Virus record (IMG/VR): IMGVR_UViG_3300020193_000005
Span: 1 to 64,000 of that record
Reading direction: 5' to 3' (one strand)
DNA from: a virus
DNA: 64,000 nucleotides
The translations under genes were made by a program, and so were the position numbers. The stretch's first letter is position 1, and every line of letters begins with the position of its first letter. Shown here piece by piece: positions 27,804-64,000 of this stretch. Below the pieces are notes generated by a model, which saw only the letters and a program-made list of their open reading frames with translations, did no database searches and was not told the origin of the DNA.

Positions 27804-30800
27804 ATGAAAAACACGCAAATCACAGAAGACTCTTCGTACTTGTACAAGTCCCTAAACGGACAGATCAACATAGACGAAGCCAAGGGCGTGGTGGAGGCGT
27901 TCGTCGCCGGAATCGGTAACAAGGATTCTGTAAACGACATATGTTTACCCGGTTGCTTCACCAATTCCCTCGCCAGACGAAAACCCAGAGTCGTGTGGGG
28001 TCACGACTGGAATTCCCCCATCGGCAAAGTTTTGGAGATATACGAAGTAGGACCGAACGATCCGCGACTGCCGGCGAGAATGAGAAAAGCCGGCGTCGGC
28101 GGTTTGTACGTCAAGGTTCAATTCAACCTGAAGGCGGAGAAGGGTAGGGAGGCTTTCGCCAACGTTTCGTTTTTCGACATGGAGCAGGAATGGTCGATCG
28201 GGTACAAGACCCTCGACGCGGTATTCGATCCGGTGCAAAACGCGAATCTCCTCAAGGAGGTGGAGCTGTACGAAGTCTCTCCCGTGTTGCACGGCGCCAA
28301 TCAACTCACCGGAACCATATCCATCAAAGCCGACGGGACCGAAACGCAGATCAAGGACGGGCAGGGTCCTTGCTGGCCCGGATACAAACAGGTCGGCACG
28401 AAGAAGGGCAAGGGCGGGAAGATGGTTCCCAACTGCGTGCCAGTCGACGGCAAATCGCTCGAGGACGAGTGTTGCCCTGACGAAAAAGCGGCCGATAAAC
28501 CGGTCCTACGCGATCCCAAGGGTGGATTGACGGCCGCCGGGAGGGCCCATTTCAAGAGAACCGAGGGCGCGAATCTGAAACCGGGCGTGAAGGGCGCGGC
28601 CGACACGCCGGAGAAAATGCGCAGGAAGGGTTCCTTCCTCACGCGCTTCTTCACCAATCCCAGCGGTCCGATGAAGAAACCGAACGGCAAGCCCACCAGG
28701 CTCGCCCTCTCCGCCGCCGCCTGGGGGGAGCCGGTACCCCAGGACGCGTCCGATGCCGCGAAATTGGCGGCAAAGGGTAGAAGATTGCTGGAGAGATACG
28801 AAAAGACCAAGAAGAAAAAGAAAGACGATTCCGATTCGACGCAAAACAAAAATCACGTAGAGGCGATTTATTCCGCCTACAATTCGCAAAGCAACGAAAG
28901 CTTCGGCAGAGCCTCCATGTTGACCAGGTCCCTGGCGAAACATTTCGGCGGAGCGGTAAGACTCGTGAAAGCCGACAATGACATAGCGATTTTCGAAATG
29001 GGTGCCGGTACCGGGACGGAAATGCTGAGAGTCGCCTACCACTACGACGGCGACGAGTTCATGTTCGGGACTGCGCAAAAAGTAAAGCCCGAAACCGTGT
29101 TCATCCCGATCGGTAGCGAGGGCGCTCCTACGGGCGGGATCGTCACCTCGCCGTCCGCCACGACTCCGCAGACCCCGATGCTCGCCGCGGGCGTTCCCTC
29201 GGCATCGTGTTGCGATTCGTGCGCCGCCGGGAAGAACGTTTGCGCAAGTCCGAAATCTTTGGCGACTTGGGAAGAATTCACGGAAAAAAACGACGGTAAT
29301 CATTCGTTGTTCGTTCTCGAAAGAGGGGACGACCCGACGGAGATTTTTGACGCGTTGTCCGCCGTAGGCGAATATCACGGATTTTCTGTCAAGACCCTCA
29401 ACGACGGATTCCTCATCGAGGACTACGACTCCCTTTCGGACGAAGCCGTGGAGGCGGTGGGGACGCTGGGTCGCGCGATGGAGCAAAAAGCTTTACGCAG
29501 ACTGAGGGGGCGAGGCTCACGAGGGAACATGGATCCGCGAACGGCCATAGACGCCGATCTGGACAGACTCGTGCTCGAGGGAATACCGATGATCAACCTC
29601 GGTCGCGGCGTACCGGATCCCACGCCTTTCGGGAATGTTCCCGATGTGGGAGGGGGTCGTGCCGAGAGGCTTGCGCGAACTCTTTCTCCGAGGGTGCGAC
29701 GTAACCAGCAGAGGACGATGGGACAACTTGAAGGTGCAATAGAGCCTTCGCTCATGGATAGGGCCACGGAGAGGGTCGCTAGGGGAATGGACGCCGCCGA
29801 GACCAGAATCAGCGATCAAATGGGTCGTTTCGTTGGCGATTTAAGGGAGGAGCGAGACGCGAGAAAGGCGAGAAGGTTCGAAAAGGCGAAGAAGAGGGCT
29901 CAAAAGAGGGGTTGGTTGCCCACCGAAGAACAACTCGCCCGAAAGAGGTCGGCGGAAGAAGCGCTTTTCGACTTGGATGATCAGGAGGACATGCTTCTCG
30001 CGATGGAGCAAACGAGACGATCCCGGATGGGTCTTCCGGCGATGTCGCGAGAAGAGTCGGCAAGAATGCTCGACAGGAACATTCCCGATCGCCACGAAAA
30101 ACGCAAGAAACTTTACGACGAGCTTTACGGCGACAGCGGAGCGATGCGAAGCGAAATGCCGGCCGTACCCTACCCGCAACGACAACCAGAGAAAGTTCCC
30201 GAGCGCGTCCCCGAGAAAGTTCCAGAGAAAGTTCCCGAGAAAGTTCCCGAGAAAGTTCCCGAGAAAGTTCCCGAGAAAGTTCCCGAGAAAGTTCCCGAGA
30301 AAGTTCCCGTAAAACCGACGCGCGTCCCCGAGAAAGTTCCCACGAAGCCGCAACGCGTCCCCGAGAAAGTTCCCACGAAGCCGCAACGCGTCCCCGCCAA
30401 GCCGCAACGCGTCCCCGAGAAGGTTCCAGTGAAACCAGCGCGGGTCCCCAGGAAGGTTCCAGCACGCACCTCCGCCGACTCCGGGGCGATGTCGAAGGAG
30501 CCCGAGAAAGGCGATCAAATTAGATTTTACGGAAGCTCGGATCCTTACACGAAACTACAGCCCGGAACGATGGGCAGGGTGACGAGAGTCGCTCCGGACG
30601 GAACGATTTCGGTGGAGTGGGAAGACGGAAGTTCTTTGAAGATGATTCCCGGCGAGGACGTCTTCCAAATCATGCCGCCGGCTAAAACCTACGCAGACTT
30701 GAATCAACTCATAGAAAGCCCTTGGCGCTTTGACGAAAACATAAGTCTTCACCTGGATCCGAAAACCGGAGTTATTTATGAAGCCGACGCCTACGGTCAA

Positions 30801-33800
30801 TTGGTCGAACGACTCGGAGACGGGGCGAAGCTGACCCAATTGAACGAGTTCAACATCGATGATACCGACTCCGTCGGCTACGACGACGCAGGCAATCTGG
30901 TCAATCGCGGACCGGACGGGGACGAAATAATCTTCACGGCGGAGCAGCTCGGCGATTCGGGTGCGATGACTCGTCCGTTGCCGGGAATGTCCGAAGAAGA
31001 ATACGAGGCATGGCTCGCGGAACATCGCGCAAAGAGCAAGTGGAAGGGGCGGAGGGGCACCGGGATCTTCGTGGACCCCGACACGGGCAAGCCGGCGAGT
31101 CCGAAAGACAAAGAAGTCCTCGACAAAGTGATGGAACAAATGCTGGCTGCCATAGAAAGCGACGATCCCGACTCAATTCACTCCATGGAAGATCTTACGA
31201 ACGCTACAAGGAATCCGGACGGAAGCTGGTCCTTTGACTCTCCCGAGGCCGTCATAGAAATAATAGAGGGAGAGGCGGCCGGGGATACGCCAGAAGAAAT
31301 TCTGGACAGAATTCGCCGCGCCAACGGCGAAGTGGACGACGAAGCGGAAGGCGATTCGGGTGAAATGACCGTGAATCGCGGGGTTCCGGACGACGTGCGT
31401 AGGGTCGTACAGGGAACGGACAGAAGCAATTTGGTCGGCGGGCGTGCCGAGCCGATGAGGAGAGCCAACGAAGCCCTCGTTTCCGCGGCCAACCGCACGA
31501 TTCGTCCGGAATCGAGCGGAGACACCACGGATCCCGCATCTCGGGCGGCCAGCGACATCATTAAAACTTTTGATCAGTTCAAGCTTTCTCAGGCGGAAGT
31601 GGACGATCACATCGAGAGAATCAAGGCGTCCATGGGTCGGATGGTCGGCGAGGTCGGTAATTCCGAGTCGAGAGAAAAAATCATCGACACCTTCAATAGG
31701 GTGCTCGGAAAACTCACTCCGGAACAGATCGCCTTCGAGCGATCGAGGATAAGGGAGAGAATAAAGAACGCCGGGTTCGACGAAATGCGCCGTATGTTCG
31801 GATTGGACGACGAATCCAATTCCGGAGCCATGGCGAAAAGAGCCGCCAAAACCCCGGAAAAACTGGAACGATTCGAAAGGGAAGATCTCGGAAGGCGCAT
31901 ATGGCTGGAGCGAACCTACGACGGCAAGACGCTCGACGACGTAGCCAGAAAACACAGAATGAGTCGGGAAGCCGCGCGTCAACTGGAGATTATGCACGCC
32001 AGAAAACTGAACGGAATGGATCCCTCATCGGACAACAGGGTAGGTAGATCGACCATAGAAAGAGTCGTGTCGAGATCCGCAATCGGGCTCTCTGATCAGG
32101 AAGCCGACCTCCTACGCAGAAGATTCGACGGAGAACTCCTTGAAGAGTCGGCCAGGAGAATGAGGATGGACAAAAACGCCGTTCGGAGAATGGAACAGCT
32201 CGCTCTCAGAAAGATGCGGGATTTCATCGTGGCGGCGGAAAAATTCGAAAACGAAGCGGATTCCGGCGCGATGCGTCGCGGATCTGGAGGCACGGCGGCA
32301 GACGCCGACCGCCCAAAAGGTCGTAGGTTTCCGGGGCGTAGAGCCCGGAAGACACCAGGTTTCACGATTCCCGAAATGGTGGAGTCGCTAAGCGACAGTT
32401 ACGGCAGCGACATGTCCAGATCCGACATCATCGCCGCCGCCGTACTGATGCGCATAAGAAGATCGATGACCGACAAAATAGACTATCTACTGGCGAAGGG
32501 AGCGAGAAGTAGGAGATTCTCCGCCCTGGCCGACGAAATAACCAAAGCCGACGCCGTCTACAAAGACGGCTCGACCACCGGATCCGCTTTCGTCAAGACC
32601 GTTTTCGGCTCCAGCGCTGAATTGAAAAAACTGATCCAGAGAAGAGCGAACAGAATCGACGAGGTAAAAGACGTTGACGGAATAGTGAACGCAAGAACCG
32701 CCGTAACCCTCGAGGAGGTCGGCGGCGACGTGAGGGAAGCCGCGCAAAAATTGGGCATTGATCCCAAGGTCGTGGAGAGACGGGCTATCGCTCACTCGAT
32801 CATCGCCCAAGCGATAGCGACTCCGGAAACGCTGAAAATAGCGTCGCAGATAGATTCGCAATTCGCTTACGGGATCCTGTCGCCGAAACAAAAAACGCTT
32901 ATCAAATTATGGTTGGCCGGTTTCAGCCCCGAGGAAATAGCCGAGACGCTAAACATGACGAGAGCCGACGCATGGAGGGATCTCGGAAGAGCGGTAAGAC
33001 GAATGTCCATGGGCAACCCCGAATGGGTGAGCGAAAAAAACAGAAGAACCATCGCTTCCGTTGATTTGGCCAGCGACGAAGCCGGAGTTTTCTCGGAGTT
33101 GACGCTTTCCGACGGATCGAAACACAGGAACTACCTATCAAAGAGCCCCATCGGTAGCGGAGCAAGCGGAGCAATGGCCAGGGCCGAGGTGGTGAGCGTC
33201 GCCACGGACGCCGGCGAGGAAAGTTACGTGATGGTTCCGGCGAGAGGGGACAGGAATCCTTCATCCTTCTCGCTCTTCCCGTTGAGAACCAGGAACGAGG
33301 ATTTGATTTACGAAGCCGTCGCGGCGGAGGCGAGCGGGATGCTCAATTCCGGTTTGTTCGCGAGAATAGTCACGGACGAATCCGGTGATCAGAAATTGTT
33401 CGCCGGATCCCTCGGAAAGAATTCGATAAAAACGCTATCGGAGATCGGAACCGTCAACGAGAGAACTCCGTTCGTGACGTCTCTCGCTTCGGACGAAAGG
33501 TACGGAAAAGCCCTTCTAGCGAAGTACGACGATCTAAGGAACGTCCTATCCGATACTCCGTTCTCGGAGAATCTGGGCGTGGACGACCGTCGTCTTTCCA
33601 GACTGTCGGAAATCTCGGAAAAAATAAGGAACTCGGCCGCCGTAACGCCGGAAGAAATAGTCGTCATGGATTCCATATTGTCCGAAATCGACGACTCGAG
33701 GCGATCGGCCATACGTCGCCTACCCCACGATTTCGACGAGGAGACGACCGATTCCTTCGTCAACGCCGCCGACGATAGGAGATTTTCGTACGCAGAAAAC

Positions 33801-36800
33801 GACGGCGGAAAAACTGTTCCGTACGCCAAAAGAATGCTCGGGTTGGGTTCGCCGAACGCGAGAGAATTTTACCTACGCGTCGGCAAAGACGGAAAACTTT
33901 ACAAGTGGAATCATCCGAACAATCTCGAAAACGACATAGGATCCTGGGCGGATTCCGCGGTCGGGGAGGAATTCATTCCGTCGAGAGACGACGTCAGGGC
34001 GATTGCTTACGACTCGACCGGCGTTACGAGATCCCTCGTTGGCGACGGAGATTCCGGGGCGATGAGTCTTCCCGGAGAGGGAACCGAGTACCGAGAGGAC
34101 GACAACGAAGTCGTCATAATTTCTGACGGTATTTCGGAAGCATCCATCGGCGGGGCGGCGTATTTGGCCATCGGTCAGAATAAACCCCTGTCTTTTGCGT
34201 ACTACAAGAAGGGATCGGGATGGGAAAAAAGATCGGTCGTTCCGAGGGATCTGGTCAGAGGGGTGTACAAAGCCGTGAAACGCGACGACGGATCAACCGT
34301 CTTCGTTTTCCATAAAGCCGACGCCCCGAAAGGATATTTGTTCCTTAGGGCTTTCGATCCGAATAGGAACGAGGCGAGAGAATTCAGGCTGGACAGAATC
34401 GGCGGAATCGGCAACCTGACGTCTCAACCCAAATCCACGAACGCCGCGCCGTCCGGAACTCCGCAGGGCAATACCCCGACGGGTTCGACGCCGCCGAAAC
34501 AAGTTTTCCCGAAACAAATTTTCACTCGTGCCGGCAAAGTCGGACAAGCGACCGTGTGGGTTGATCAACATCCGGTCAGACCGAGCGCCAGACAATCCGC
34601 GTACGAAAAGACGATCGTGGTCGCCGATGCCCCGGTGGCCGGCTATCTCGACGAAGCCTTGAAAGAAATCGGGGAAGGGAGTTTCTTGGAGGGTTATCAG
34701 GGCGACGCTTCGGTGGTGCTTTCGGTCCTGATGGACGCGCTCGGCGACGAAAAACATCCGTTGCACGACAGAGCCAACAAATACATGCTCGCCATGGAAT
34801 CGAAAAAATTAGGCAAACTCCTCGGTAGGACGGCATACAGAAAATCCGGCCTGCAAGGTCCTCCGCTCAGAAGAAGGGCCAAACCGTGGGGTGGCGACCG
34901 GGGAAATACCAAGTTGGCGGATTTCGAGTCGTGGACCGATCCGCAGCAGATGTACGACTGGGCGCGAACCGGGGACTATGTCCTTTTCGACGTGGAAACG
35001 ACCGGATCCCCGGGACTCGATGCATCCGCCGCCGAGATAGCGAGAAAAACCCCGCAGGGAAGGGTCGTTCAAATTGCCATGACCCCCGTAAAGAACGGAG
35101 TCCCGGGACAAACGAAAATTTGGTGGGTCAAACCATTGGACGACGACGGCAACGCAGTGGAGATGAGCGACTGGACGAAGGAAAACGTGCCCGGTCCCGA
35201 CGGTGCAAGAACGCTAACCGACCAGTTGGCGATGAACGATCCGAGATTCGTGGATCCCGCGGTCGCGTGGAGGGAGGTGTCCGATTGGCTCAAATCGGAA
35301 TTCGGGGATTCTCCGATTCTGGTCGGATACAATTCGGCCAACTTCGACATGCCGATCGCCGAAAGAATGATCGACGACCGAGATCTCAAAATTGGTTGGT
35401 TCGACGTCATGGTCCTCGCGGATCAGGTTCTGTACGCGGAAAGCCAGGCCTTCGACGACCTTAGCAAGATTTCCGTAGATAGAAGGAAATCCGGTCGGGT
35501 CGTACCCGGTTTCGCGGCGGGAACCGTGATTAGCATGGCCGGGTTTTCTAAGCGTCATAAAGCGAACCGAGGTTCCAGACTGATATTCGGACCCGCCAAC
35601 TTTCATCCGGTACTCGACGGCAGCGGGAAGCCCACGTTCAAGCCGGACGGCAAACCGAAGATGCAACCTAAGTTCAGGATAAACCTCGAGAGTCTCAAAG
35701 AGTGGGCCGGGGTGAAAACACGAAGAGCCGCCCACGCCGCCGACGTCGACAACGACGTCACGCACAGGGTGATGCTAGCCCTGACCGAACATCAAACGAA
35801 ACGCGGCAGGGCTCTTCACATGTTCGACAAAGACTTGCGAAATCAATTGGAAAGATACCTACGGGAAGAGTACGAATTCAGGGCGAGTACGCACGAAGCG
35901 AGGAAAAACCAGGGTTCTTTCTTCGGATTCAATTCGCCCAGAGCCGATAGCGGCGGCGCGAGACCGAATGAACCGGCCGACGTCGGGGACGCTACGACCG
36001 GTTACGCCGAATCGTACGGAAATGTCGTCGGCTCTCGGGAGACCGGGAGAAGAGTTGTGGGTAGACCGTCCGTAAGGGTAATCGGCGATTATCCGGGATT
36101 GCCGTTTTACGTCGTCTCCTCGAACGGGGAGGAAACAATCTTGATAGGACCGGAATTCTGGACGGACGGAATAGACCCGGACACGAGAGAACCGTTACTG
36201 CTTAGAAACCAGAAAGCTCTGATCCCGATGATCGGACAAGCCAGAAAATCCGGACGCGGTATTCAATTCGTCTACGGGAGGCGCGACGACGGATCACCGG
36301 TCAACTACGAAATATTCGCCCTCGAACTGGTGCCCGACGACGGCATGACGATGGAGGAGGCGAGAATAGCAACCGAACGAGATCGAAGAATCAGATTTAG
36401 TCTTGCCGGAACCCTAAGAAACGGAATGTCGTTTGAATTTTCTTTCAAGGACATAGGCAATCCCGACGCTCCACCGCCCAGAGCGAGCGAATACGTTCCA
36501 ATGACGGGCGAGGAAGTTTCGGGAGTCACGGACGCGATTCTCATGACTCCGGCCCAATACTCCGATCAGTTGATGAGAAAACGCGTCATTGCGTTGCGTA
36601 ATAGTCGTAGCGGGGGCTCCGGGTCGTCGACGTCGGGGACCGATTCCGGCGCGATGTCCGGTTTGACGAATCGCTACGGCGGTTCGGGGGGATTGGAAGC
36701 GTGGATACCCGACGAGAAATATAAGTCCTTCTCCTCCATGGACGAATCTCAGCTAAGAGCGATAGTCGAACGAACCAGGAGATCCGTGAACGATTTGATT

Positions 36801-39041: not shown

Positions 39042-39116
39042 GTCTTACCGAACGAACCGCTATTTTTTGATAAGTTTCCTACAAATGAGCTAAGACGTCT
39101 TAGAATAGGAGTTGCG

Positions 39117-39488
39117 ATGAAGCAAATTTTCTCATACGAAACCAAGTCGGCCAGCGGGCGCCTCTTCCTCGATATGCAGGAAAGCGGGGAGCTTTTCGGG
39201 GAGGATCCAGAAGAGGAGGATTCCTACGAATACGACGAACCCGAGGACGAGGACGAGGATTACGCGTCGGGTATCACCTTGCCCGCCAAGGTGGAGGATA
39301 TGTTTCGCGTAAAGTCGGCCATCGATCCGGTGTTGGAAAAGTACGGATTTGAGAGTTTCGCCGACGTCACCGGGATACACATTCCGAGAGCCAAAATGAT
39401 GGGACCGATACTGGTTGGGGAAATCAACGCCGCCCTGGATCGGGTTTACGCAAACCAGCCCAAAACCCCGAACGACGATTCCGTCTAG
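39117..39488 (+). CDS. Acidic hypothetical protein (123 aa)
   Basis: TAGAAT then AGGAG SD then ATG. Confidence 0.7.
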   Translation: MKQIFSYETKSASGRLFLDMQESGELFGEDPEEEDSYEYDEPEDEDEDYASGITLPAKVEDMFRVKSAIDPVLEKYGFESFADVTGIHIPRAKMMGPILVGEINAALDRVYANQPKTPNDDSV

Positions 39489-39544
39489 TCAAAGGTTGTA
39501 AGAACGTGGCCCGCAACCAGAGGTATTCCCGTAAAAAGCCAGTT

Positions 39545-39691
39545 ATGAGTTATCCTAATTCTGCACAACAAAACGGTTTGAGAACGAAATATCAATGCAT
39601 GACGACTGGCGAAAAACGTCCGTCGCCGTGCGGCAGTTGCGTTAAACCAAAAAACTGTCTCTCGACCGCAATGCAATACAAGGAGCGTTAA
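39545..39691 (+). CDS. Small Cys-rich protein (48 aa)
   Basis: YQCMTTGEKRPSPCGSCVKPKNC resembles the Cys motifs of the next gene; stop abuts the next ATG. Confidence 0.5.
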   Translation: MSYPNSAQQNGLRTKYQCMTTGEKRPSPCGSCVKPKNCLSTAMQYKER

Positions 39692-39692
39692 A

Positions 39693-54500: not shown

Positions 54501-56170
54501 CCCGAATGGCTCAGAATAGAAAAAATGAGATTTTGAATCCTCAAATACTGGAAAGAAACAAACAAGACATCATCCAGGGACAAAATTTGCCGGATCACGT
54601 TGACAAATTCGTCGATCGTGCGGTCGGCGAGGGGAAAACCGATTTAGAAATACTCCAAGATCCTATTTTGAAAAGCGCAAATTCCAAGGATAGCTACGGC
54701 AAGCGTTTGGGGTTGGCTAGGCGAATAGCTATCGCCCGCGGCGACGAGAAACTCGTCGAACAAATAGACGAGTTCGTGGACGAGTTGCAGCGTTTCACGC
54801 CCGAACAGTACAACTCGGCGCTAGAGGAGGCCGTCGAAAAATTCAATAGCCCGTTCGACGAGCGACCGGTAGTCCTCGTACAAAGCCCGCTGGAAATAGT
54901 TTCCTCCGGCAGATATCGGACCGTTCACGACGGGATGTCTTCGCAGAACAACGAGAACCCCATGACCCGCGGAACGAACGTCCCGGAATTACGGAGGACA
55001 GCCGAGTCGATGACTTTGAACATTCCCTTCGAGGACGACGAACAAATCAGGTCGCTCAGACCCGCGTCGGCGATGGTGGCGCAAAGAACATCCAGCGAGG
55101 CCAGAAACGCGAAACTGCGCGAAATTTACGGCGACGACGTGGAGATCATGCACGACGGCCCCTCGATCGGGAAAGAAGCAAACTTGGAAATCACGGAGGG
55201 AACCAGCGCAGAACAAAAAGGGCAAGGGCGGCAGTACGGATTCAGCTCCATCATTCTCCGCCCCGAAACGGCGAACAGAACGCTCGCCGTCGACGGGGAC
55301 GTGATAAGCGATCAGGGCGAATCTGGCGGCAGAATCTCCGCCGCTGGCGCAAGACTGACGAATCTTTCCCGAAAAGGCGAAATCGCCTCGCTGTTCTTCG
55401 ATCCGCTGGCGCTACTGTTCGAGGAGAGAACCGGAAGAAGGGACACCGTCGCCAGCGTAAGAAACAGTCAAAACAAAAGATACGTAGAGGGTATGGTTCT
55501 TGGGTCTTTCGAGGTTTCCGACATCGAATCGGTGGTGGCTAATCCGTTATACCTTCGCGGATCCGGCAAAATTTGGGATTTCGATAAGAAAAAAACGAAC
55601 TTGGTCGGAGTTACTCCGCAGGCTAGTTTCACGAACCTAATCGCCGCCGCCAGACAGCGCGAAGACCTGGTTGACCGGTACGGAATAGACGTGGTGATCG
55701 ATTCGCCGTATCTGCCGTTGGACGAGGTCGAACCGTTCAACGCCCAAATGACCGAAACCTGGGTGGGCAGAAAAATCGCAAACGGGGATTGGACAGGGGT
55801 CACGAAGTCGGATCTCATAAAAAACAGACGAACCACCCCGTACGAAGCGTTGTTGAGATATCGAAAAGTGTTGGCGGAACGAGAGGGAACAATGGGGCTT
55901 CCGATTTTTGATCACCCCGACAACGACTTCAGGGACGAACCAGGACAAGTCAAAAATTTCGTCTCCATGATTGACGAAGAGTTGGCGAGAATCGGCGGGT
56001 TTGGCGGGGTTTCGGATTCGGGAGCGATGCGAAGCGCACGGGTAAAGATGCTCATTCAAAGAATAAAAATGGGACAAATGAGCGTAGGTGAAGCGGCCGA
56101 GCAACTGGGCGTATCGCCGTCGACCATTTACGCGTTGATGAGGAAGCCCGCCGAAGCGGTCGGGAGGTGA
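48587..56170 (+). CDS. Giant polyvalent protein (2527 aa): zincin-like HExxH, Pro/Gly linker, DEDDh exonuclease, DUF3626-like, HTH
   Basis: TATAAT and GAGG upstream; 4 DSGAM-type linkers; HEPKH; LDTET...NGNNFD...HDAKVD. Confidence 0.85.
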   Translation: MSPIFENIPPNSKVIAKHGSKVLFGLRNGSTALYDSKSGSFRRGDDADLMAMDDFSSSHNGEWADDRLRRFAASRKTLNLGSDISFKVVQKPRKSSSRDDVAQPQDLANMLPREFVNWARSYVPGQRLPISPPGYSGTDSCLGQNAGGRSSAKMPNADELTSMILRTYGFPQTAPVDATKEMRSAYEKGLLGRTIREMATPNILSMVAAARGLWVDRLNKIRCLGGPAANRFTNIFGVGCDIPSSPAELARDAASAAREAAGDASRAVGEAMERVGEARAGVGIAKERVGETIEATDEIPGDLSVTRMIGELRQSEQTLFDTDTGQMTRRAGGNQPLLINSANAVADETNKKATRRVLIHEGARRWINSWVERQKGEDPSNPLGVIRSAIRRRRSRQQATTTGALTPQQLNEQEVKLYAQGVIELIRLTDPELADELSEPSHLLNDINDPVAVRNAGNQNSKNVIEMMLTDALGPDAGRDRAKLQRYAANLFAIYQPYIEDRQNHPELKQTPVNFAPQKNLWETSNVVAFFTVPGFGGGRNQPLSNYVAPTPTNPGYAGSGMLDLLDRGEFPLFGMGYPGNNVVEAVTRSGVTPLDGYKHTTDSFYNKVVKNIGSGNAPFHGVYLFDSRLITEPESLMRLFDSPDGHLPVSGLSPAAVLQHTLEHEPKHLVAFSQRLRSNLGYTEAEWAERLGRQFKLGGSGLEDSRFGDPILGENPDHVYGPIDLFRDARSGTFIRRQVDELMIALRHPDYEGVVLPDGLRGWKSTDPVLNGAQKIALLWKFYANNISWDRTTAQNVQNLYALKAGKQAAAQLVAEIDESLKRRGFDDGVRRILQQAIREDLMYYEDGPLDRRRILGSSSEDALHQSINEAAIDAEIAQRISAGTPNPDRDQVINDLIAQGRVIPLGSRPDPGRPVTGPLSQHNRLSGQNRLTEKQIVLAQNFVGDAYAMSSAIELDAEFNTAIAQPDAPERVKQFIAAYRAVDPNFTDNDFYDIIELMAGREARYRLQHPNRPSPPRASAAPNRNLIGAPPAQARQASPPQAPPALGGGLGPGGTPPPPGGGGGGGGGGGGGVTPSPGGGTPSPGTPSPGTPSPGGGTPSPGTPSPGGGTPSPGTPAKKPRKKRTPKPKPGAQTPPASPTPGGQTPPASPTPGGQTPPASPTPGATPATPNQSPLPQGGSPVPRPRPTTQRPPQAKRTGPKPSSKADTTTVQKAGALSADIVQTIAVGDPNDSQWLQKSLDSLDSDDQAASDHRARAVQKVDRALDDVVAWANGRLLPKPVGIHPHYPIQIVAGPDDNPAVRELRQSTGPKDLLDRMDRLGYIVLDTETAGPDLEIHGGAIFHFYAKKRNPDGTVEELDLYIKPTVTPAMPVDRYPDAFETLPDGTRIARLSEELTSGPQKMLDRAEYDRAVSQGIDRTEAAARIAAFLNPDMPVVTMNGNNFDLPLLDEMLDEGRAAGTVDNDFGLIDLASVDLLAIGHNLLRGRHERHDRNRKVADLARRLYNGDKIPSGPELIGPWMTSKIGSPKGSVEGYNPATADIKEFWSEDGVKHFVETLPDGTKIKGEAMTMLKTNNKLDALANYAGVRARATHDAKVDVGKTEETMRALLEQGEIQGMSKYAFDHEAAAKAQEALGMGPPQGGTLDRKRPGDVRKAKGTAQRLAGGPGTRSSRTDTDLDLEQDERVDAFAPWPDAASRTGMSANPNLQVIEPQDGMTSAEKNEMTTLLEKLEGLDQIKQVRKATNLTPEERQRLKILLTKAADAYKKAKTRISDSQGDLTDDEGIRAWLAQLAKMEKFMKENPDLYSEEAIQLMVDGVINGAGNLTPESLVAMERRVNDLITKLGYQGEFFQDMVAAHLSVALDRAVREMRRRNPSLSANEIRELLGMDPDDTPLVVAILGDSGAMRSARRIAGTRRIDDIAPDSGAMRSTPVVARNPDSSRKTAEKTASILGRAESVGVDIDRQEREVVPRMAQNRKNEILNPQILERNKQDIIQGQNLPDHVDKFVDRAVGEGKTDLEILQDPILKSANSKDSYGKRLGLARRIAIARGDEKLVEQIDEFVDELQRFTPEQYNSALEEAVEKFNSPFDERPVVLVQSPLEIVSSGRYRTVHDGMSSQNNENPMTRGTNVPELRRTAESMTLNIPFEDDEQIRSLRPASAMVAQRTSSEARNAKLREIYGDDVEIMHDGPSIGKEANLEITEGTSAEQKGQGRQYGFSSIILRPETANRTLAVDGDVISDQGESGGRISAAGARLTNLSRKGEIASLFFDPLALLFEERTGRRDTVASVRNSQNKRYVEGMVLGSFEVSDIESVVANPLYLRGSGKIWDFDKKKTNLVGVTPQASFTNLIAAARQREDLVDRYGIDVVIDSPYLPLDEVEPFNAQMTETWVGRKIANGDWTGVTKSDLIKNRRTTPYEALLRYRKVLAEREGTMGLPIFDHPDNDFRDEPGQVKNFVSMIDEELARIGGFGGVSDSGAMRSARVKMLIQRIKMGQMSVGEAAEQLGVSPSTIYALMRKPAEAVGR
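51770..52085 (+). repeat. (GGT)~13 poly-Gly, TPSPG repeats and 33-bp (QTPPASPTPG[GA]) x3
   Basis: Directly visible low-complexity coding repeats. Confidence 0.95.
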
Positions 56171-56174
56171 CGAA

Positions 56175-59045
56175 ATGATTGAATCCGCCACGCAAAGATT
56201 CATTTCGGCGATGGGCGAAATCGACGCGACCAGAATGGAATCCAAGAAAAAGTCTCTCGGTCGGGACATGAATCCGTACACCGCCAGGGACGCCGATTTG
56301 GACAGATTGGTCCTCGAGGGAATAGCACGCGTAAACATGGGTAGGGGCATCCCCGATCCGACGCCGTTCGGAAACGTCGGAGCGATGACGCGGAATCAAC
56401 CCCCCCCGGCGAGACCCGAGAACAGATTGCGCAGGGCGGTCAGGCGTTCCATGCGCGACACCCCGAAGAGGGTCGCGAGGGGAACCAGCTCATTGCGACG
56501 ATACCTCGAGTCGAGCGACGGCGTCTCGGGGAGGATGGCCTCGGAAAGACCGATCGATCAAATTTTCCAGAATTTCAAAAGGGTGTCCATCGACGAGATA
56601 CGAAGCGGCGTAAATTCAGTCGTCGGGAAAGTCGATTCAGTCATGGGGCAACGACCGAGAACGATCGGCGAAATATTGAGAAATCTGAAAAGTTTGGAAA
56701 ATCTCATCAACGGAATGAATCCGGACGGATCGCCGACCCCGAACGGAGAGAATAGGAATTTTCGTTTGCTTCCCCTTTTTTTCATGGCGTCCACACAGAA
56801 TGCTCTTAGGGAAGCGATGGGAGATAGATTCGACGGAGAAAAAACGATTCCGTCGAAGCACGACATCGGCGTGTACTACGCGACGGCGTACTCGATGCTG
56901 GAGAATCCGGAGGCTTTTCGGGACGTCGATTTCATAATTCAGCCGATGTCCATGCCCGACATCTTCGGTCATCCGGGCGCAGAAGGATCAGTTTCGATGG
57001 TTCCGTCGTATTACTCCTTCCACGCGCGGCCGCCGAAAAGCAGCGTTAGGCGTGAAAGGGGCGGCGGGTTCGATACCTCCGGAGTAGCCGACACCTACGT
57101 GGCGTTCTCGCCGGTCAAGGACTATAGCGAAGGTCTAATGATAAACGTGACCCATAATCCAAGGATCGTCGGCGGTCGACTGCCGGTGCTCATGAGATTG
57201 GCGATGTACGGAGAAGAAGGGGACAAAGAAACGGTCGTCAAGGGTTTCATTGTGCCGAAGTCGCAAACCGGAAAACGATCCGTTACCGAGAAGTTTCAGG
57301 AGACGGAATTCGTGCACGAACGGCGGACCGGCGAAAGGGCGACGTTTCAGAGACTTTTGAAGGAAGCCAACGATTTCATGGATGCCTATTCGGAAGAAAT
57401 TTCTCCGTCGTTCGTTGTGGAGACGACGGGACTTGACATAGTGCTTTCGCTGATCGAAGAGGCTCAACGAATTTTCAAAAAAGCGAACGACGCGTTGGCC
57501 GAAGATCCATCCGTTTCGCCGTCAATGGTGGAAGCCATGCGCGACGAGGGCAAGCGGCTTATTGATCTGGCCGACATGACGGCCTCCATGGCTTTGGCTT
57601 TTCACGAATTCGGTCACTTTTTTGACAAAGTTGGCGACTACAAAAATAGTCCCGCCTACCCGGAGGCGTCCGATACGGGGGGTAGGGGTTTGAATACCGC
57701 GTACGAGTACAGAAGGGATCTGGCGATACTCGAATCGCTGAAAAAGGGAGAACCTTCGCCGTATCTTGAATCCGTCGCCGAAGAGCTTATGCACGGCAAA
57801 GTGAAGAACATTTTGAAAAACTTTTTGACCACGTACGTCGATATGACGGCCGCCCTAACGGCAATGGAGAGATTGTCGCTGGTCAGATCCTCCCTGAATC
57901 CGTTGATCGGCGACGTGGCGAAATTGGTAAACGACAACGACGGTTTAGCCGGCTGGGCCTGGGTGAAAATGGTAGTGACCGGACAAACCAAAACGGTCGA
58001 AGACGCGGTTTCTACGATCAAAATGGCGGGGCTCGTCAAAGTAAACCCGGATAATTCGCCCTCCAGGGTCGAAGCGGAGGCAAGGCGAATCATAGGGGAA
58101 TTGCGAAAAATATTCAGCTACGGGGCGGCCCGTGGCGTCGCTTGGGATATGCGCTCGCGCGCGTCGCGCCTGTTGACCCCCTCGGCTTTTGCCGCGCAAG
58201 CTATGGATAACGAAAATTTTAATTCCCTTTTGGCCAAGGCGGACGATCGGCAAAGAGCGATGATGCTCGCAGTGATGGCGGACGCCCTGGTTCGCGGCTA
58301 CGACAACCAACTAAAAACATCCATAGAAGCCACGAAAGAGCGAATCATCGAAAACGAAAGGTTGTTCAAGGGTGAAGGAGAGGTGCCCGATAAATACATG
58401 GGACTAAGAAGAAACGCGTGGCTTTCGGAGTGGCTGTCCGGGCAGTCGTTCAACGTCGACGGGTATGCGACGGGCTGGAGTAGTCTCATGTCCGAATTGA
58501 TTTCATCCAATCCCGACGTCGTCGTTGAGTTTCTGGAACTATTCGGCAGAAAGAACGCGATAGACGGTTGGTTTGACGCCGACGGCTCCTTCAGTAAAAA
58601 AGAATTCGTCAAAAGGGAAATAACAAGAAAACACGTAGACCAACCCAGTTCGTATAGTCCGATTCTTCACGCCATAAATAACGCCGTAAACGGCAGGGGT
58701 TATTCCGGATGGAAGGATCTGACCGACGACGAATCGGCGACTTTGGCCGCCGTGATCGGGAAAATAACTCAGTATGCGGATCAAACGGATTACGACATGG
58801 CGAATCCGAGACCCAAGCACGTTCAGGTCTCAAACGCCGAAACTTACGCGGAACTCAACGCCATCCTAAGCCTGAATATTCTTTCCTTCCTGAATGGGTT
58901 GACGCAAAGAGAGAGGGACATCGCCCTAAAATTGCGTTCGCAGATGATGTCAAGAGTAAACGAAATGCGAGGACGAATGTTGCGTAATTCCAGGCGATTG
59001 CGAACCCCCGAGGAACAAATGCGAACCCCCAAGGAGCAAAGATGA
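56175..59045 (+). CDS. Large tagged protein (956 aa) with zincin-like HExxH metallopeptidase motif
   Basis: GGAGGTGA SD; tag at N-terminus; AFHEFGH and downstream YA...AETYAE. Confidence 0.8.
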   Translation: MIESATQRFISAMGEIDATRMESKKKSLGRDMNPYTARDADLDRLVLEGIARVNMGRGIPDPTPFGNVGAMTRNQPPPARPENRLRRAVRRSMRDTPKRVARGTSSLRRYLESSDGVSGRMASERPIDQIFQNFKRVSIDEIRSGVNSVVGKVDSVMGQRPRTIGEILRNLKSLENLINGMNPDGSPTPNGENRNFRLLPLFFMASTQNALREAMGDRFDGEKTIPSKHDIGVYYATAYSMLENPEAFRDVDFIIQPMSMPDIFGHPGAEGSVSMVPSYYSFHARPPKSSVRRERGGGFDTSGVADTYVAFSPVKDYSEGLMINVTHNPRIVGGRLPVLMRLAMYGEEGDKETVVKGFIVPKSQTGKRSVTEKFQETEFVHERRTGERATFQRLLKEANDFMDAYSEEISPSFVVETTGLDIVLSLIEEAQRIFKKANDALAEDPSVSPSMVEAMRDEGKRLIDLADMTASMALAFHEFGHFFDKVGDYKNSPAYPEASDTGGRGLNTAYEYRRDLAILESLKKGEPSPYLESVAEELMHGKVKNILKNFLTTYVDMTAALTAMERLSLVRSSLNPLIGDVAKLVNDNDGLAGWAWVKMVVTGQTKTVEDAVSTIKMAGLVKVNPDNSPSRVEAEARRIIGELRKIFSYGAARGVAWDMRSRASRLLTPSAFAAQAMDNENFNSLLAKADDRQRAMMLAVMADALVRGYDNQLKTSIEATKERIIENERLFKGEGEVPDKYMGLRRNAWLSEWLSGQSFNVDGYATGWSSLMSELISSNPDVVVEFLELFGRKNAIDGWFDADGSFSKKEFVKREITRKHVDQPSSYSPILHAINNAVNGRGYSGWKDLTDDESATLAAVIGKITQYADQTDYDMANPRPKHVQVSNAETYAELNAILSLNILSFLNGLTQRERDIALKLRSQMMSRVNEMRGRMLRNSRRLRTPEEQMRTPKEQR
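56268..56372 (+). repeat. 35-aa shared tag, copy 3
   Basis: MNPYTARDADLDRLVLEGIARVNMGRGIPDPTPFG. Confidence 0.95.
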
Positions 59046-59344
59046 CCGAAACGAACGAAATGCCCCCGAAAGAAGAGATTGATCCGCTCAAGCAGAGGGA
59101 GATGGACGTCGCCGACGACATGTTCGGTTTTGGCAGAAAGAGCGCTAAAAAGGTTTTCCTTTCACTATTGACGGACAAAATGATGGAAAATGGAGTAAAG
59201 CCGGAATTAGCGAAGGACGTGGTGCTCTCGTTGTTGCCGGATTTGACCGAAATCGAAAAAGCCATCAGCGAAAATATAAGCTTTGCCGATCTGGCGAAAA
59301 GATACGAAAATTTCATGGATGGGGAATTGAGGGAAAATGAATGA
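59042..59344 (+). CDS. Hypothetical acidic protein (100 aa)
   Basis: AAGGAG SD and ATGA overlap. Confidence 0.7.
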   Translation: MTETNEMPPKEEIDPLKQREMDVADDMFGFGRKSAKKVFLSLLTDKMMENGVKPELAKDVVLSLLPDLTEIEKAISENISFADLAKRYENFMDGELRENE

Positions 59345-59906
59345 GTTCTTGAACTCAAAAGCCGATCCGCTCGGAGGTCTTTTGCCCCAGGAGGTCGTAA
59401 CCGGCGACGTCATGCGCGGATACGGTCCCAGAAGGGGAAATCTGGAGAGATTGCTTCGCTACTGGAGACCGATCATGAAGAAGCCCGGCGGATTCAGGAG
59501 GTGCAGGGTCATTCTCGCCGATCATCCCGAGCTGTATCCGCTCAACAACATATGCGCCTGGTTGCATCACGAAACGACCGGATTATGGCCGAACGAAGGC
59601 TGTCACCACCCGGGCATGAAAAACTGCAGAAGAAAACTGCGCGGCGTCGTCAACGGATCGATCTGGAGCGACTCGGATTTCAACGACAGGCTCAAGAAAA
59701 TTACGAGGAGAAGGGGAAAGAAGGATCTCAGATCCAGTGGCGGTATCGACGCGGCCCAGACCTACGATCCGTTCGTGCCGGTCATAACGGACGACGACTG
59801 GAATCACGCCTGGGTGGTTTTGGACGACTTCGTAAAGATGGAACCGACCTTCGTCGCGTACGTTTGCTCGGACGATAACTGGGAGATGTTCGATTCGGAT
59901 GTCTGA
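59337..59906 (+). CDS. Hypothetical head-module protein (189 aa)
   Basis: GNLERLLRYW..PGGFRRC...CAWLH..TTGLWP resembles a Cys/His module recalled from actinophage head genes. Confidence 0.65.
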   Translation: MNEFLNSKADPLGGLLPQEVVTGDVMRGYGPRRGNLERLLRYWRPIMKKPGGFRRCRVILADHPELYPLNNICAWLHHETTGLWPNEGCHHPGMKNCRRKLRGVVNGSIWSDSDFNDRLKKITRRRGKKDLRSSGGIDAAQTYDPFVPVITDDDWNHAWVVLDDFVKMEPTFVAYVCSDDNWEMFDSDV

Positions 59907-61992
59907 CGCTATGGGCAACGACGACTGTTGCGGGAGTAGAACTCTCGTCAAGAGGACAATTTCGCCGGCGCTCGCCGTCATGCGAACAAACGTATACGAC
60001 GTGCCGCTGTATTTTTTTCGCAATAGACAGAAAACCGTGGACTACAAGTGTCTGATGACGAAATCCATATCCGAGAGAAGGACGACGAGTCATCAAATCA
60101 GCGTCAAGTCGGGGATAATTTCGTCGGACGACCCGGTCTCCAGGGCGGTTCAAACCGTGGGCGGAATTTTGATTCCGGGGAATATGTCCAGGATCAGGAG
60201 GCCTTTCAGATCCACCATCGGTTCGGCCGTGGTTACGGGACCACGGGGTCTGATTCCGTCCACGGTTTCCAGACTTTCGCCGGGAATGATCCCGAAACCG
60301 GACAGGGGATTTAGGTGTCCGGAGGGTTTTCAATTCGGGGGACAATTCACGGACAAGTACTACTCGACGTGCGGGAAAAAACTCTTTCAGCTAGCCCTGA
60401 CCGTGGGAGCGAATTTCGACAGATACGTAAAGCTGTCCTCCGCGGGCGCCCTGAGAAAATTCAGGATAAACGGATTCGAATTGTCTCCCATCTCCAGGGA
60501 GAGACAAATATCGGCATCGGATCAAATCTCGACCATTCGGAATCCCCAAATTGATATACCCGAAGTCGGCTCGTATAGCGTGTCCAAATTCAGGGAAGCA
60601 TTGCAATCCGTCGTGAAGGATATGACGGACAGGGGAGAGTCCTTGTCCCGCCTGGTGAGAAGGGACGGGTTGGTCCTGGAACCGCTCGTATCCGCCAAAG
60701 TCCTGAGGACGGTTCCGGACAACAAAAGCATGGAGGAATCCGCCTACGTGACGTTCGCTAAAAATCCCGCATACATAGGCGGAGACGAAATGTGGATGTT
60801 CTCCAACAGCGGAGTGAATTCGCTCGTTTACGTACTCCCCAACGGCGGAACCCTGACACTAAGAAAGAAAAGGAATCTATCGAACGGGGAACGAAGGAAG
60901 CTCGGGAGAACGATATCCGACGCCAGGAAAATGACCCTGTCCGACAATCCAGCGATCAGGTTGGAACACGTTTCCTCGGAAATGGACGGACCGATAGCGT
61001 ACGAACAAAATTTTAGCGACATAGATTTTCCCAACGATATGGTGATCGTGTTCGACGCGAAGACCAAAAAACAACGCCAGGTTCGCAAATGGCACAGGGA
61101 CGCATATCTTCTGGATCCGAAAAAGAGAGTGATCTCCGAAAGGTCTACGCAGATAGAGGACGTCGCCGGGATGCAGGACGATCTCGGCGAGGCCGTTTCC
61201 ATGCTGAACGACGGAGGGCAAATCGGAAACATAAGTCCGGAAATACGGATACCGGCTATGGAAAGATCCGGGGTTTTTAGAGCCAGGCGCGCCGGCGACC
61301 GCGCCACGGAGTATTACAACGGTCGGCAAAAACTCGTCGCCATGAGTTCCAGGGTCGAATTCGAGCACATCGGAGCAATGACGACCGCAGAAATACAGTC
61401 GCAATTGGGGGCGGTCGCTCCGTACGTTTGGTTCGCCGGATCGGGGATAAGAAGACCCTACATATATTCGATGCCCGACGGCGACAAGAACGCAACCAGA
61501 ACCTCGAGGGTAAGCGACGAAAGTTTCGCAAACGCGGAAGATATGACTCGACTGATGATCGCCGACATCCTCACCGATTCTCTGTCGAGAAATCCTTCGC
61601 TGATATACACCTCGCAGTTCGACGGAAAAAACAGGACCTATTCGGCGCCTCTTTCGCTGTCGGCGATGTCGGGAATGAACAGGAAGGAAAAAGAGAAGAG
61701 AATATCCGAGACTTCCGCGGAGGTAATGCGCGATCTTCGGGTCTCCATATATTCGGATTACTTCCGTTCGTTGAGGGCAGCTCAAAGAAAAAGATCCCTG
61801 TCGTTGCTGGAGGAACTCCTAGAGAGAGCTAAAATGTTCTCGTTCGCCGATTTTGCGAGAAGAATGGCCATAGACGGAAAAATGTCGGAAGCCGAACGCA
61901 TTCATCTCGAATCGGTGAAAAGACTCTACGAAAATAGGGTTCAACATCTGTACTCGGGCATAAAGACGATCAGGGAGATAATCGGTGAATAA
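59899..61992 (+). CDS. Hypothetical protein (697 aa) with RC..GGQFTD..C motif and possible degenerate HipA/PI3K-like kinase fold
   Basis: Long ORF overlapping both neighbours by 8 nt. Confidence 0.7.
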   Translation: MSDAMGNDDCCGSRTLVKRTISPALAVMRTNVYDVPLYFFRNRQKTVDYKCLMTKSISERRTTSHQISVKSGIISSDDPVSRAVQTVGGILIPGNMSRIRRPFRSTIGSAVVTGPRGLIPSTVSRLSPGMIPKPDRGFRCPEGFQFGGQFTDKYYSTCGKKLFQLALTVGANFDRYVKLSSAGALRKFRINGFELSPISRERQISASDQISTIRNPQIDIPEVGSYSVSKFREALQSVVKDMTDRGESLSRLVRRDGLVLEPLVSAKVLRTVPDNKSMEESAYVTFAKNPAYIGGDEMWMFSNSGVNSLVYVLPNGGTLTLRKKRNLSNGERRKLGRTISDARKMTLSDNPAIRLEHVSSEMDGPIAYEQNFSDIDFPNDMVIVFDAKTKKQRQVRKWHRDAYLLDPKKRVISERSTQIEDVAGMQDDLGEAVSMLNDGGQIGNISPEIRIPAMERSGVFRARRAGDRATEYYNGRQKLVAMSSRVEFEHIGAMTTAEIQSQLGAVAPYVWFAGSGIRRPYIYSMPDGDKNATRTSRVSDESFANAEDMTRLMIADILTDSLSRNPSLIYTSQFDGKNRTYSAPLSLSAMSGMNRKEKEKRISETSAEVMRDLRVSIYSDYFRSLRAAQRKRSLSLLEELLERAKMFSFADFARRMAIDGKMSEAERIHLESVKRLYENRVQHLYSGIKTIREIIGE

Positions 61993-64000
61993 CGATCTCG
62001 TTTTCGCCCCGATTCGCGACGTCTATACGGATCTGATATTTTCCGTGCTGCTGAGCGACGGAATAAAGTGCAAGGCGATAGGAAACATGAACCAGGGCGA
62101 CGACTGGGCGCGTTGGGCGAACGGGTCGGGCCTGAGTAGTTCGCTAATACTGGATTCGCTCGACTACACGTTACGAGCCGACGAGTTCTCTCCCCTAACG
62201 GAGTCGTCCCTGATCTCCGTCAAGTCGATCCTCACGGCGGACGCATACGACGCGCTTTCCGTTTCGCTGGATGGCATTTCCATCAAGTCTCAACCCGACG
62301 ACGACGAATCGCAAGCCGACGAGGATCTCCCGGAGCCCGAACAGGAGCCCGTTTCCGCCATATCGGTGATCGAGGTGGGGATGTCGTTGTTCGACGCCCA
62401 ATTCAAGAAATTGGCGGTCGACTACAAGGCGAATTATCAGAATACGAAGATAGACGTGTCCTCCTTGGCGCTGAGCGTAAAAGCCACCAAGTCCGTGTGG
62501 GCAAATAAAGCGGACGGCGTCGCTTGGAAATCATTGGTCAGCAACTCCTACTCCGACGATCCTGGCAAATTGATTTACGGAAAGATGTACGGGCGCGGTC
62601 TATCGCGGCGTTTCGCCATGTCCGTAAAAGCGGTTTCCAACATGGATCCGCGAACGGCGAGGGACGCCGATTCGGACAGATTGGTCCTCGAGGGCATTCC
62701 CACAGTGAACTTGGGTAGGGGGGTTCCCGATCCGACCCCGTTCGGTGCAGCGAGGCTCGCCAGAAGAACCAGAAAAAACCGAGATTACGCCGTAGCCGAC
62801 GGTAAAAACAGAAAGCGAAGAATGGAGTCCCGTTTCTCCGCCGAAATCAGGACGGGCGGATTGGATTCAACAGCCGTCGGAGGGCGCGATTACTTAAAAG
62901 ACGACGAATCCGATTCCGGAAAAACGACGTTGAACAGAAGAATGAATCGCAGAACCGCGGGAAGCTCGACGAGCGCGACCGCGAGAGGAACGAGCGCTTC
63001 GTTCGATTCGGGCAATCCGGCCCAGTCGGCGACGCGCTCAACTAGAGGAAGGTTTCCGAAGACTTCCAGGATCATTCAAAAAATAAGGAACAATCCTCCG
63101 GTGAGGAGATTGTCGGAAAACGTTTTCGGGGATCGCAAGATTTCGGGAAAGAAGCCGAGACTCGACAAAAGGACGATGGCCAATCGATCGACCGGGTGGC
63201 TGAATAAACTTTCCGAGAGAATAGCCTCCGCCAGTCCCCCGAAAATGGACACCGGTTCGCCGATAAGGGAAAATAGAAGAAGAAAATCGCCCTTCGCCGG
63301 CGAGAGCGACACCGGTCGGATGAGGCGCGTCGTCTACAGCCAGACGACACCGATGAGGAGTTTGTTCGGATTGAGAAACTCAATGGACGACGATTCCGCC
63401 AACAGAAAGAATCTCTCCGAATATACGCCGACCGAAAGGGCGCTGATACTCGGAGAGGCGAAAAAGGTCAGAAGCGACCTTCTCTCGCAATGGAGATCGC
63501 GTTTGGGTCTATCCGAAGACGCCGACGTACTCGAAGACGGAATTTTGACCTATATCCAGGATCAGGAAGCACGTGGAAAAAACGTCTATCCGCTCCAGGT
63601 TCAGGCACATAATTTGCTGATCCTCGACGAAATGCTCTGGGATGCGGAAACGAAACCCGACAAGAACATGGACAACATGTGGTGGAACCTCAAGGAAAAC
63701 GCTAGAGCCAGAATAGTTTCCGATTCTGGCGTTCTCGTTCCTAGCGCCCAAAAACAGGGGGACAACGATCTTTCCAGGCCACCGGCTCGTCCGGTAAAAA
63801 CCCCGATAACCGCTCCTCCTCCGAAGAGCGCCGACGAAATCGTCAAAACTCAGGTCGCGGCAAACGACAATCCCTGGAAGATGGATAAAAATACGAGAGA
63901 TCAGGTCATGTCGGATCTGGGCGAATGGTTGAAAAACTCTCCGGAATTCCTAACGTTTAGCGATAGGTTCGGCGAAAACGAAACCGAGTGGGACGAATTC
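61985..64000 (+). CDS. Large tagged protein, partial (>672 aa, runs off the window end)
   Basis: Manual translation from GTG 61985 (GGGAG upstream) is stop-free to 64000; contains tag copy 4 and DTGRM at 63308. Missing from the ORF track. Confidence 0.85.
   Translation, partial: MNNDLVFAPIRDVYTDLIFSVLLSDGIKCKAIGNMNQGDDWARWANGSGLSSSLILDSLDYTLRADEFSPLTESSLISVKSILTADAYDALSVSLDGISIKSQPDDDESQADEDLPEPEQEPVSAISVIEVGMSLFDAQFKKLAVDYKANYQNTKIDVSSLALSVKATKSVWANKADGVAWKSLVSNSYSDDPGKLIYGKMYGRGLSRRFAMSVKAVSNMDPRTARDADSDRLVLEGIPTVNLGRGVPDPTPFGAARLARRTRKNRDYAVADGKNRKRRMESRFSAEIRTGGLDSTAVGGRDYLKDDESDSGKTTLNRRMNRRTAGSSTSATARGTSASFDSGNPAQSATRSTRGRFPKTSRIIQKIRNNPPVRRLSENVFGDRKISGKKPRLDKRTMANRSTGWLNKLSERIASASPPKMDTGSPIRENRRRKSPFAGESDTGRMRRVVYSQTTPMRSLFGLRNSMDDDSANRKNLSEYTPTERALILGEAKKVRSDLLSQWRSRLGLSEDADVLEDGILTYIQDQEARGKNVYPLQVQAHNLLILDEMLWDAETKPDKNMDNMWWNLKENARARIVSDSGVLVPSAQKQGDNDLSRPPARPVKTPITAPPPKSADEIVKTQVAANDNPWKMDKNTRDQVMSDLGEWLKNSPEFLTFSDRFGENETEWDEF
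62642..62746 (+). repeat. 35-aa shared tag, copy 4
   Basis: MDPRTARDADSDRLVLEGIPTVNLGRGVPDPTPFG. Confidence 0.95.

Follow-up and report, generated by a model that had tools for sequence, protein, structure and literature searches.

A conserved disordered peptide shared by the prohead-protease protein and giant polyproteins of an uncultured myovirus, a candidate label for entry into the prohead

Little is settled about how phage heads take up giant polyvalent proteins, and a study of phi24B asks how an ejection protein of about 2,800 amino acids (aa; elsewhere given as '>3,000') is organised in the capsid (bioRxiv 10.64898/2026.04.10.717836). The same question is raised by the first 64 kb (the window, 64,000 nucleotides) of the 109,136-bp IMG/VR record IMGVR_UViG_3300020193_000005, estimated by CheckV to be about 73% complete, in which a peptide of about 35-55 aa, here called the tag, recurs in a series of very large proteins. 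An earlier note on this DNA described the tag in four giant proteins and proposed that it addresses them to the prohead. We find that there are actually five carriers, one of which (gE) is of merely 956 aa, and one of which (gA) contains the prohead protease itself. The reading that we favour, and hold with about even confidence, is that the tag is a prohead-incorporation label common to the protease and its cargo. The carriers are named gA, gC, gE and gG (in the window) and gH (past its end), and gB, gD and gF denote tagless proteins of the same region. The carriers and their tag copies are the following.

27789..39041, plus strand: gA, a 3750-aa polyprotein with an S78 prohead protease domain (aa 32-177), DUF6321, the tag, and then cargo with about ten DSGAM motifs
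29487..29639, plus strand: tag copy 1, gA aa 567-617, consisting of a Lys-Ala site, a basic spacer and then the core
41729..48271, plus strand: gC, a 2180-aa polyprotein with many helix-turn-helix (HTH) domains
41804..41920, plus strand: tag copy 2, gC aa 26-64
56175..59045, plus strand: gE, 956 aa
56250..56375, plus strand: tag copy 3, gE aa 26-67
61985..64000 in the window, running on to genome position 68107, plus strand: gG, 2040 aa, without a DSGAM motif
62627..62749, plus strand: tag copy 4, gG aa 215-255
genome 69391-88875, outside the window: gH, about 6466 aa in a 6494-aa open frame, with its N-terminus at genome 69475
genome 69829-69945, beyond the window: tag copy 5, in the 6494-aa open frame of gH

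The consensus, read from the translation, is xxPxTAxDADxDRLVLEGIxxxNxGRGxPDPTPFG, with window copies at 29529, 41813, 56268 and 62642 on the plus strand, and 25 of the 50 columns of the tag alignment are invariant. A profile built from the four window copies finds exactly five copies in the whole record, and pairwise BLAST shows the five carriers to be alike in the tag alone, bar one DUF4314-like module in gA and gC. Each pair of tag copies differs synonymously in 8-19 of 35 codons and non-synonymously in 4-8; second codon positions reach an identity of about 0.9 and third positions one of 0.40-0.69, and the 105 nucleotides on each side of the tag are 18-35% identical between copies, which is the level expected by chance. 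Because second positions are conserved, third positions have diverged and the flanks are at chance, the copies are old, and it is strong purifying selection acting on the peptide alone that maintains them; recent gene conversion does not account for their likeness. The earlier description of near-identical peptides with synonymous DNA differences and unrelated flanks is thus borne out by both translation and codon-position identities. The tag lies 17-570 residues from the N-terminus of its carrier, its core of about 35-40 aa beginning at aa 17-569, and each copy is preceded by a K-[SA] dipeptide; this Lys-Ala/Ser site, pointed out earlier, is real and is conserved family-wide in the form [EK]-K-[SA]-L-G. 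We also considered K-[SA]-[LIV]-G as a general cleavage motif and rejected it (17 seen against 8 expected), since it is no more than the N-terminal boundary of the tag. The Arg-rich stretch that was said to follow the tag is present as a basic enrichment, albeit a modest one, with Arg plus Lys at 0.20-0.28 compared with 0.12-0.15 across the whole proteins.

In a search of 1.84 billion representative proteins, a profile of 11 tags had 40 matches, comprising 36 true carrier clusters and four Kelch-repeat proteins, the latter spurious in that only a 14-19-residue stretch aligned. Each carrier cluster has a single tag copy in the first 17% of a protein of 850-6391 aa, excepting two gene-call fragments of 220 and 496 aa, the longer of which provides the sole position above 17%. 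The start positions group by orthologues (about aa 17-60, 107-138 and 193-286, and 522-569 for the protease-fused proteins), and tags are present in orthologues of gA, gC, gE, gG and gH. With a looser pattern, a scan of IMG/VR gave 44 loci in about 25 contigs, often with three to five per genome; the search of the rest of the genome and of IMG/VR proposed in the earlier note therefore yielded both a fifth copy and further copies in other contigs. That note had also held that a tag found mainly in cellular proteins would speak against a packaging role. The copies lie in phage contigs, and none was found in the genomes of 185,579 prokaryotic species (one genome per species), so this objection does not apply. 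Tag likeness does not simply follow orthology, the paralogous tags of G000 and G001 being 68-84% alike, and the gE and gG tags of G004 and G019 forming a distinct subtype; in these sequences this pattern is suggestive, not decisive, of homogenisation.

Short motifs may be conserved for many reasons, and the tag could have no addressing role at all. It would then be conserved for a structural or regulatory purpose, for example as a hinge or as a site for a chaperone or a modification, and would have spread together with mobile cassettes. We consider this improbable, as the tag is the only element common to otherwise unrelated proteins, its copy number and position are strictly controlled, and its near-saturated synonymous sites rule out recent spread by recombination.

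The presence of the tag on the protease protein is informative as to its origin. Pfam matches in gA are to Peptidase_S78 (4e-11), DUF6321 (4e-28), DUF4314 and sigma70_r4, and the tag lies C-terminal to the S78 domain with about 390 aa of extra domains in between. Many relatives encode stand-alone protease proteins of 750-1050 aa (1565 matches), and at the homologous position, which has a conserved E-[EQ]-K and a basic stretch ahead of it, they have either the canonical tag (P0168, P0169), an FDPDAxDADxD...VQEGT form, or a DGDGDGF form, all three being followed by R-M-M-P and a proline-rich spacer. Divergent tags (e.g. DANLNG...EG...PDPTP) are found in the protease-fused giants of G008, G009 and G010 and in the first giant, the protease giant, of G007, and the protease giant of G018 has a DPDNDGW motif at the homologous place; the second giants of G007 and G018 give no tag match. 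G004 encodes a protease-cargo protein of 4580 aa. Because stand-alone proteases of the clade carry homologous motifs, often of DxDxDG type, at the same position, the tag is ancestral to the protease protein, an old feature of it that was copied onto cargo polyproteins in this lineage. In gp27 of Gordonia phage DalanDe, a 1633-aa 'capsid maturation protease', there is no tag. Separately, we observe that R-M-M-P with a long proline-rich spacer is common to the stand-alone protease homologues P0170-P0270 and constitutes a further conserved linear motif.

When modelled alone with AlphaFold2 (AF2), using an alignment of 23 tags, the tag has no secondary structure and a predicted local distance difference test (pLDDT) score of 55. 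Given 38 homologues, AF2 predicts for gA aa 1-786 the protease domain, a helical DUF6321 region and two small alpha/beta domains, and the segment of about 85 aa that holds the tag (aa 572-657) sits between folded domains with pLDDT below 50 except at aa 590-592. In this model the tag docks on no domain of its own protein. Profile searches with the tag return no significant match in either Pfam (best E 0.071, 1/23 members) or the PDB (best E 0.27). Its disorder, its lack of docking in cis and the absence of a Pfam or PDB family are what one would expect of a trans-acting linear motif that folds on a partner. Immediately following is a confidently modelled long-helix domain (aa 658-784, window 29760-30146), which ends exactly at the first DSGAM motif; from the model, this coiled-coil-like domain may be a scaffold-like element of the protease module.

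One conceivable partner is the tag itself. Tags could pair via a loop of the DxDxDG type, possibly in a Ca2+-dependent manner, and form a core around the protease with no direct binding to the shell. The tag is common to protease and cargo, and it has the pattern D-x-[DN]-x-[DN] followed by a hydrophobic pair and E-G. With respect to a DxDxDG loop, D1, D3, D5 and V8 are present, whereas position 6 is Arg in all five copies and the acidic residue, Glu, is at position 10 and not 12. In divergent relatives, position 6 of the D-x-D-x-D motif is Gly, which is what true DxDxDG loops have, and the resemblance lends some support to the Ca-loop idea. However, Pfam yields no match to EF-hand or dockerin families, disorder is predicted for the tag alone, and the protease and cargo variants differ in G014. 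We regard homotypic co-assembly as unlikely.

The tag is also associated with a second recurrent element, the DSGAM motif, which occurs 21 times in 19,507 aa when 0.02 are expected. The instances that bear on the tag, together with a tagless protein that contains the motif, are as follows.

30132..30146, plus strand: first DSGAM of gA, aa 782-786
41921..41935, plus strand: DSGLM directly abutting tag copy 2 in gC
56373-56387, plus strand: NVGAM overlapping the last residue of tag copy 3 in gE
48587..56170, plus strand: gD, a tagless polyprotein of 2527 aa in which three DSGAM motifs occur along with an exonuclease-like region (phrog_192)

The placement of a linker motif directly after copies 2 and 3, as first described from the sequence, is confirmed by the DSGLM that abuts the tag in gC and the NVGAM that overlaps it in gE. 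In gA and gH a DSGAM-type motif lies 170-390 aa downstream of the tag, and gG has none; the more general claim, that the tag occurs once per protein and upstream of the first such motif, consequently stands for the single copy and for the order wherever a motif exists, but does not extend to gG. More broadly, a small-small-Met motif is found no more than 45 aa downstream of 17 of 37 tags compared with 19% of background windows, although the motif is a loose one and the sequences are not independent. The relatives compared for the recurrent motif are P0011-P0038, G007 and G018. It varies by lineage, being DSGAM here, across window 27789-59045 and genome 69391-88875, and in P0014, and AEAGM, PSGSM, PTASM, DTGRM, ISGNM or PVGAM elsewhere, and most of the recurrent inter-domain variants end in Met; in G007 and G018 it is R-[FL]-S-S-G, with 12 and 7 copies in the two G007 giants. 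This variation suggests that the motifs are recognised by a processing enzyme and co-evolve with it, the prohead protease being the simplest candidate.

A direct relationship between tag and protease has also to be considered, in which the tag is an exosite that binds the protease domain and brings polyproteins for processing, in or out of the capsid, the copy on the protease protein serving self-association or autoinhibition. The tag co-occurs with DSGAM-type motifs, often directly before one, and the protease domain is 80% identical between G000 and G014 and highly conserved across genomes that keep canonical cargo tags. The correspondence is imperfect, in that gD has DSGAM without the tag and gG has the tag without DSGAM, and in the AF2 model of the protease module the tag does not dock onto its own protease domain. 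Moreover, the prohead proteases of HK97 and T4 act inside the prohead, and since characterised prohead proteases work there, recruitment and encapsidation would coincide anyway. We consider protease recruitment a minor possibility, unlikely but deserving of mention.

The two structural proteins that frame the carriers are relevant to where the tag might act.

25427..27715, plus strand: portal protein with a C-terminal MuF-like domain (Pfam Phage_portal 4.7e-51, Phage_Mu_F 5e-9; phrog_2662 8e-104)
genome 89264-90637: HK97-fold capsid protein with an N-terminal coiled-coil delta domain

All five tag carriers are encoded between these two genes. In the capsid protein, a highly conserved delta domain of about 70 aa and a variable linker are followed by [KR]-[ST]-[IV]-G, just past the variable end of the delta domain, and then by a near-invariant G-A-N-M about 120 residues in, the Asn and Met of which are invariant. 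Both motifs are candidates for cleavage during maturation. The first of them resembles the K-[SA]-L-G ahead of the tags and also, on checking the HK97 sequence, K103/S104 of HK97, the cleavage position in that phage.

A myovirus with a portal fused to MuF, and tags that are N-proximal and flanked by basic disordered sequence, could also point to an exit signal, with the tag engaging the portal or tail channel and ordering the ejection of cargo rather than its loading. The cleavage-type motifs abutting the tag in gC and gE would, if cut during maturation, remove the tag before ejection, and the ancestral carrier, the protease, is not expected to be ejected. An exit signal thus seems very improbable.

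We return to the reading of the tag as a label for incorporation into the prohead, which is partly supported in that the carriers lie between the portal and capsid genes, the protease is itself a carrier, and the tag is single-copy, N-proximal, disordered, found only in phage contigs and often followed by a cleavage-type motif. That the protease has the tag supports a loading label because a prohead protease has to enter the prohead. A plausible course of events, whose steps of binding, encapsidation and cleavage we infer, is that a disordered docking peptide arose after the catalytic and accessory domains of the prohead-protease protein, and was then copied onto the N-proximal part of four further multi-domain giants of polyvalent type. 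As the head assembles, the tag would attach to some component inside the prohead. The HK97-type capsid protein, by its scaffolding (delta) domain or its inner face, is the most likely one, and the portal and the protease core are less likely. In this way the protease and about 15,400 aa of cargo would be enclosed together. Cuts by the protease at the lineage-specific DSGAM-type motifs would follow and release domain-sized effectors, and in gC and gE the cut would sever the tag itself and free a peptide of about 70 aa, in the manner of the T4 CTS (discussed below).

Several observations weigh against this reading. The tag is internal rather than terminal. The DSGAM protein gD has no tag and no homologue among the tag carriers, so either the tag is not needed by all DSGAM proteins or gD is loaded otherwise; read-through from gC into gD is ruled out by six stops in that frame (the gC stop and five more). 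Within G004 some tag pairs are just 43-55% identical, and the complete genome G014 has a protease protein with a DGDSDGF variant alongside two cargo proteins with near-canonical tags; with this divergence inside single genomes, one shared receptor must tolerate much variation. Relatives with capsid proteins about 70% identical have tags that are very divergent, or none detectable. Finally, the tail of the HK97 protease gp4 contains none of the DADxD, EG or PDPTP elements and has no visible similarity to the tag.

A more elaborate form of the proposal, which we advance tentatively and think rather doubtful in full, is that the tag and the lineage-specific cleavable linker constitute a modular 'address and release' system that exploits the receptor of the protease, possibly through a Ca2+-dependent contact of DxDxDG type. 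If so, any protein that gained a label of about 40 aa would ride into the prohead and then be cut free, the clade could load more than 1.5 MDa of interchangeable effectors, and a portable, sequence-defined packaging tag would be available for HK97-type shells. Confirmation of the function would also provide a rule for predicting virion cargo from sequence.

The cargo domains include a zeta-toxin kinase, NUDIX and many HTH and sigma-r4 units, with the NUDIX and zeta-toxin kinase domains contained in gH; no known domain was found in gE using Pfam and PHROG. The orthologues of gH (P0011, P0014, P0021, P0022, P0030 and P0037) all start with a conserved G-D-C-C-P in the first 15-20 residues, a possible metal or acylation site. 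Two further tagless proteins are interspersed with the carriers, and other features of the window are located to their left.

39693-41717: gB, about 680 aa
59899-61992: gF, about 680 aa
1594-14335, minus strand: tail gene region
1594-3096, minus strand: baseplate J
6289-11619, minus strand: 1776-aa open reading frame with no Pfam match
12884-14335, minus strand: tail sheath
18131-20049: PAPS-reductase-like and ParB-N genes
23906-25219: large terminase subunit

Like gD, gB and gF lack homologues among the tag carriers, and neither has a Pfam or PHROG match. Their positions are conserved even in the distant relatives G007 and G018; the N-terminus of gB has a four-Cys cluster containing two G-A-M triplets and that of gF has a Cys-Cys pair. 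Both are candidate head structural or core proteins, and a separate scaffold protein was not identified in this phage. The tail sheath and baseplate J genes indicate that the phage is contractile-tailed, and the window is the head module of a myovirus of about 150 kb that is distant kin of actinobacteriophages. The closest cultured phages are the contractile-tailed actinobacteriophages Gordonia DalanDe and GMA6 and Brevibacterium Cantare, with capsid identities of 45-47%. The capsid protein family spans 320 IMG/VR contigs, with genomes of about 140-170 kb and terminal repeats, and canonical tags are present in part of the family only. One protease homologue is labelled as from an Ilumatobacteraceae metagenome-assembled genome, which is a weak hint as to the host.

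Among known systems, encapsulin cargo-loading peptides are C-terminal, of about 10 aa, and dock cargo inside an HK97-fold shell with no cleavage; the tag is similar in its short disordered form, but the consensus is different. In work of 2013 (J Mol Biol 425:2765, a reference given in PMC9024508), Duda, Oh and Hendrix reportedly described a capsid-targeting region of HK97 gp4, C-terminal to the protease domain, through which the protease enters the prohead. The gA tag is likewise a non-catalytic segment C-terminal to an S78 domain, in the same protease family and with a delta-domain capsid protein, although here extra domains separate it from the protease and it has been copied to cargo.

In T4 the N-terminal capsid targeting sequence (CTS) of IPI-III and Alt directs these ejected internal proteins into the prohead and is cleaved off by the prohead protease (PMC7411985, PMC9024508). 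The T4 CTS spans about 10-20 aa, sits strictly at the N-terminus and attaches to a separate scaffolding core, whereas the tag is of about 40-55 aa, internal, present also on the protease, and associated with an HK97-type delta-domain capsid, without sequence similarity to the CTS. The analogy with T4 internal proteins drawn at the outset is hence a loose one: the tag is N-proximal and often near a cleavage-type motif, but it is an internal element of about 40 aa and not a short propeptide of some 10 aa at the extreme N-terminus. In P1, DarB, a 250-kDa protein of polyvalent type, is loaded through its first 30 residues, and these also suffice to load a reporter; the Dar proteins have no consensus at their N-termini (PMC9024508); here, by contrast, one near-identical motif is found in five proteins. 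The SPN3US/phiKZ-like phages have N-terminal propeptides on cargo and a C-terminal propeptide on the protease, with one cleavage motif and a proposed targeting role, and the C-terminal propeptide of gp245 is proposed to target the SPN3US protease (PMC7411985). That system differs in having a T4-like protease, the cleavage motif x-x-E, and no described targeting consensus between protease and cargo.

Polyvalent proteins, as portrayed by Iyer et al. 2017 (PMC5512222), have from 2 to 15 or more effector domains, are encoded beside portal-terminase genes and are predicted to be packaged and injected. The carriers, at 956-6494 aa, with a protease, HTH arrays, DUF4314, NUDIX and zeta kinase domains and a location beside the packaging genes, match this class, and overlap it in zeta-like kinase, MuF and HTH domains. 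The same paper states that assemblin-like peptidases are always C-terminal, whereas the protease of gA is at the N-terminus (aa 32-177 of 3750) and that of DalanDe gp27 is near the C-terminus. A word search of that paper found nothing on a shared tag, its 'cleavage' and 'processed' passages concerning other proteins.

By analogy, the tag appears to resemble in function the T4 CTS, the P1 DarB signal, the SPN3US propeptides and the HK97 protease tail, while in sequence it is a member of none of these. Known capsid-targeting signals are short and phage-specific, and here one conserved peptide is found on a maturation protease and several cargo families in a large uncultured clade. What is new is this long conserved consensus on both protease and cargo families, its origin on the protease, and the linker motifs, specific to each lineage, with which it is paired.

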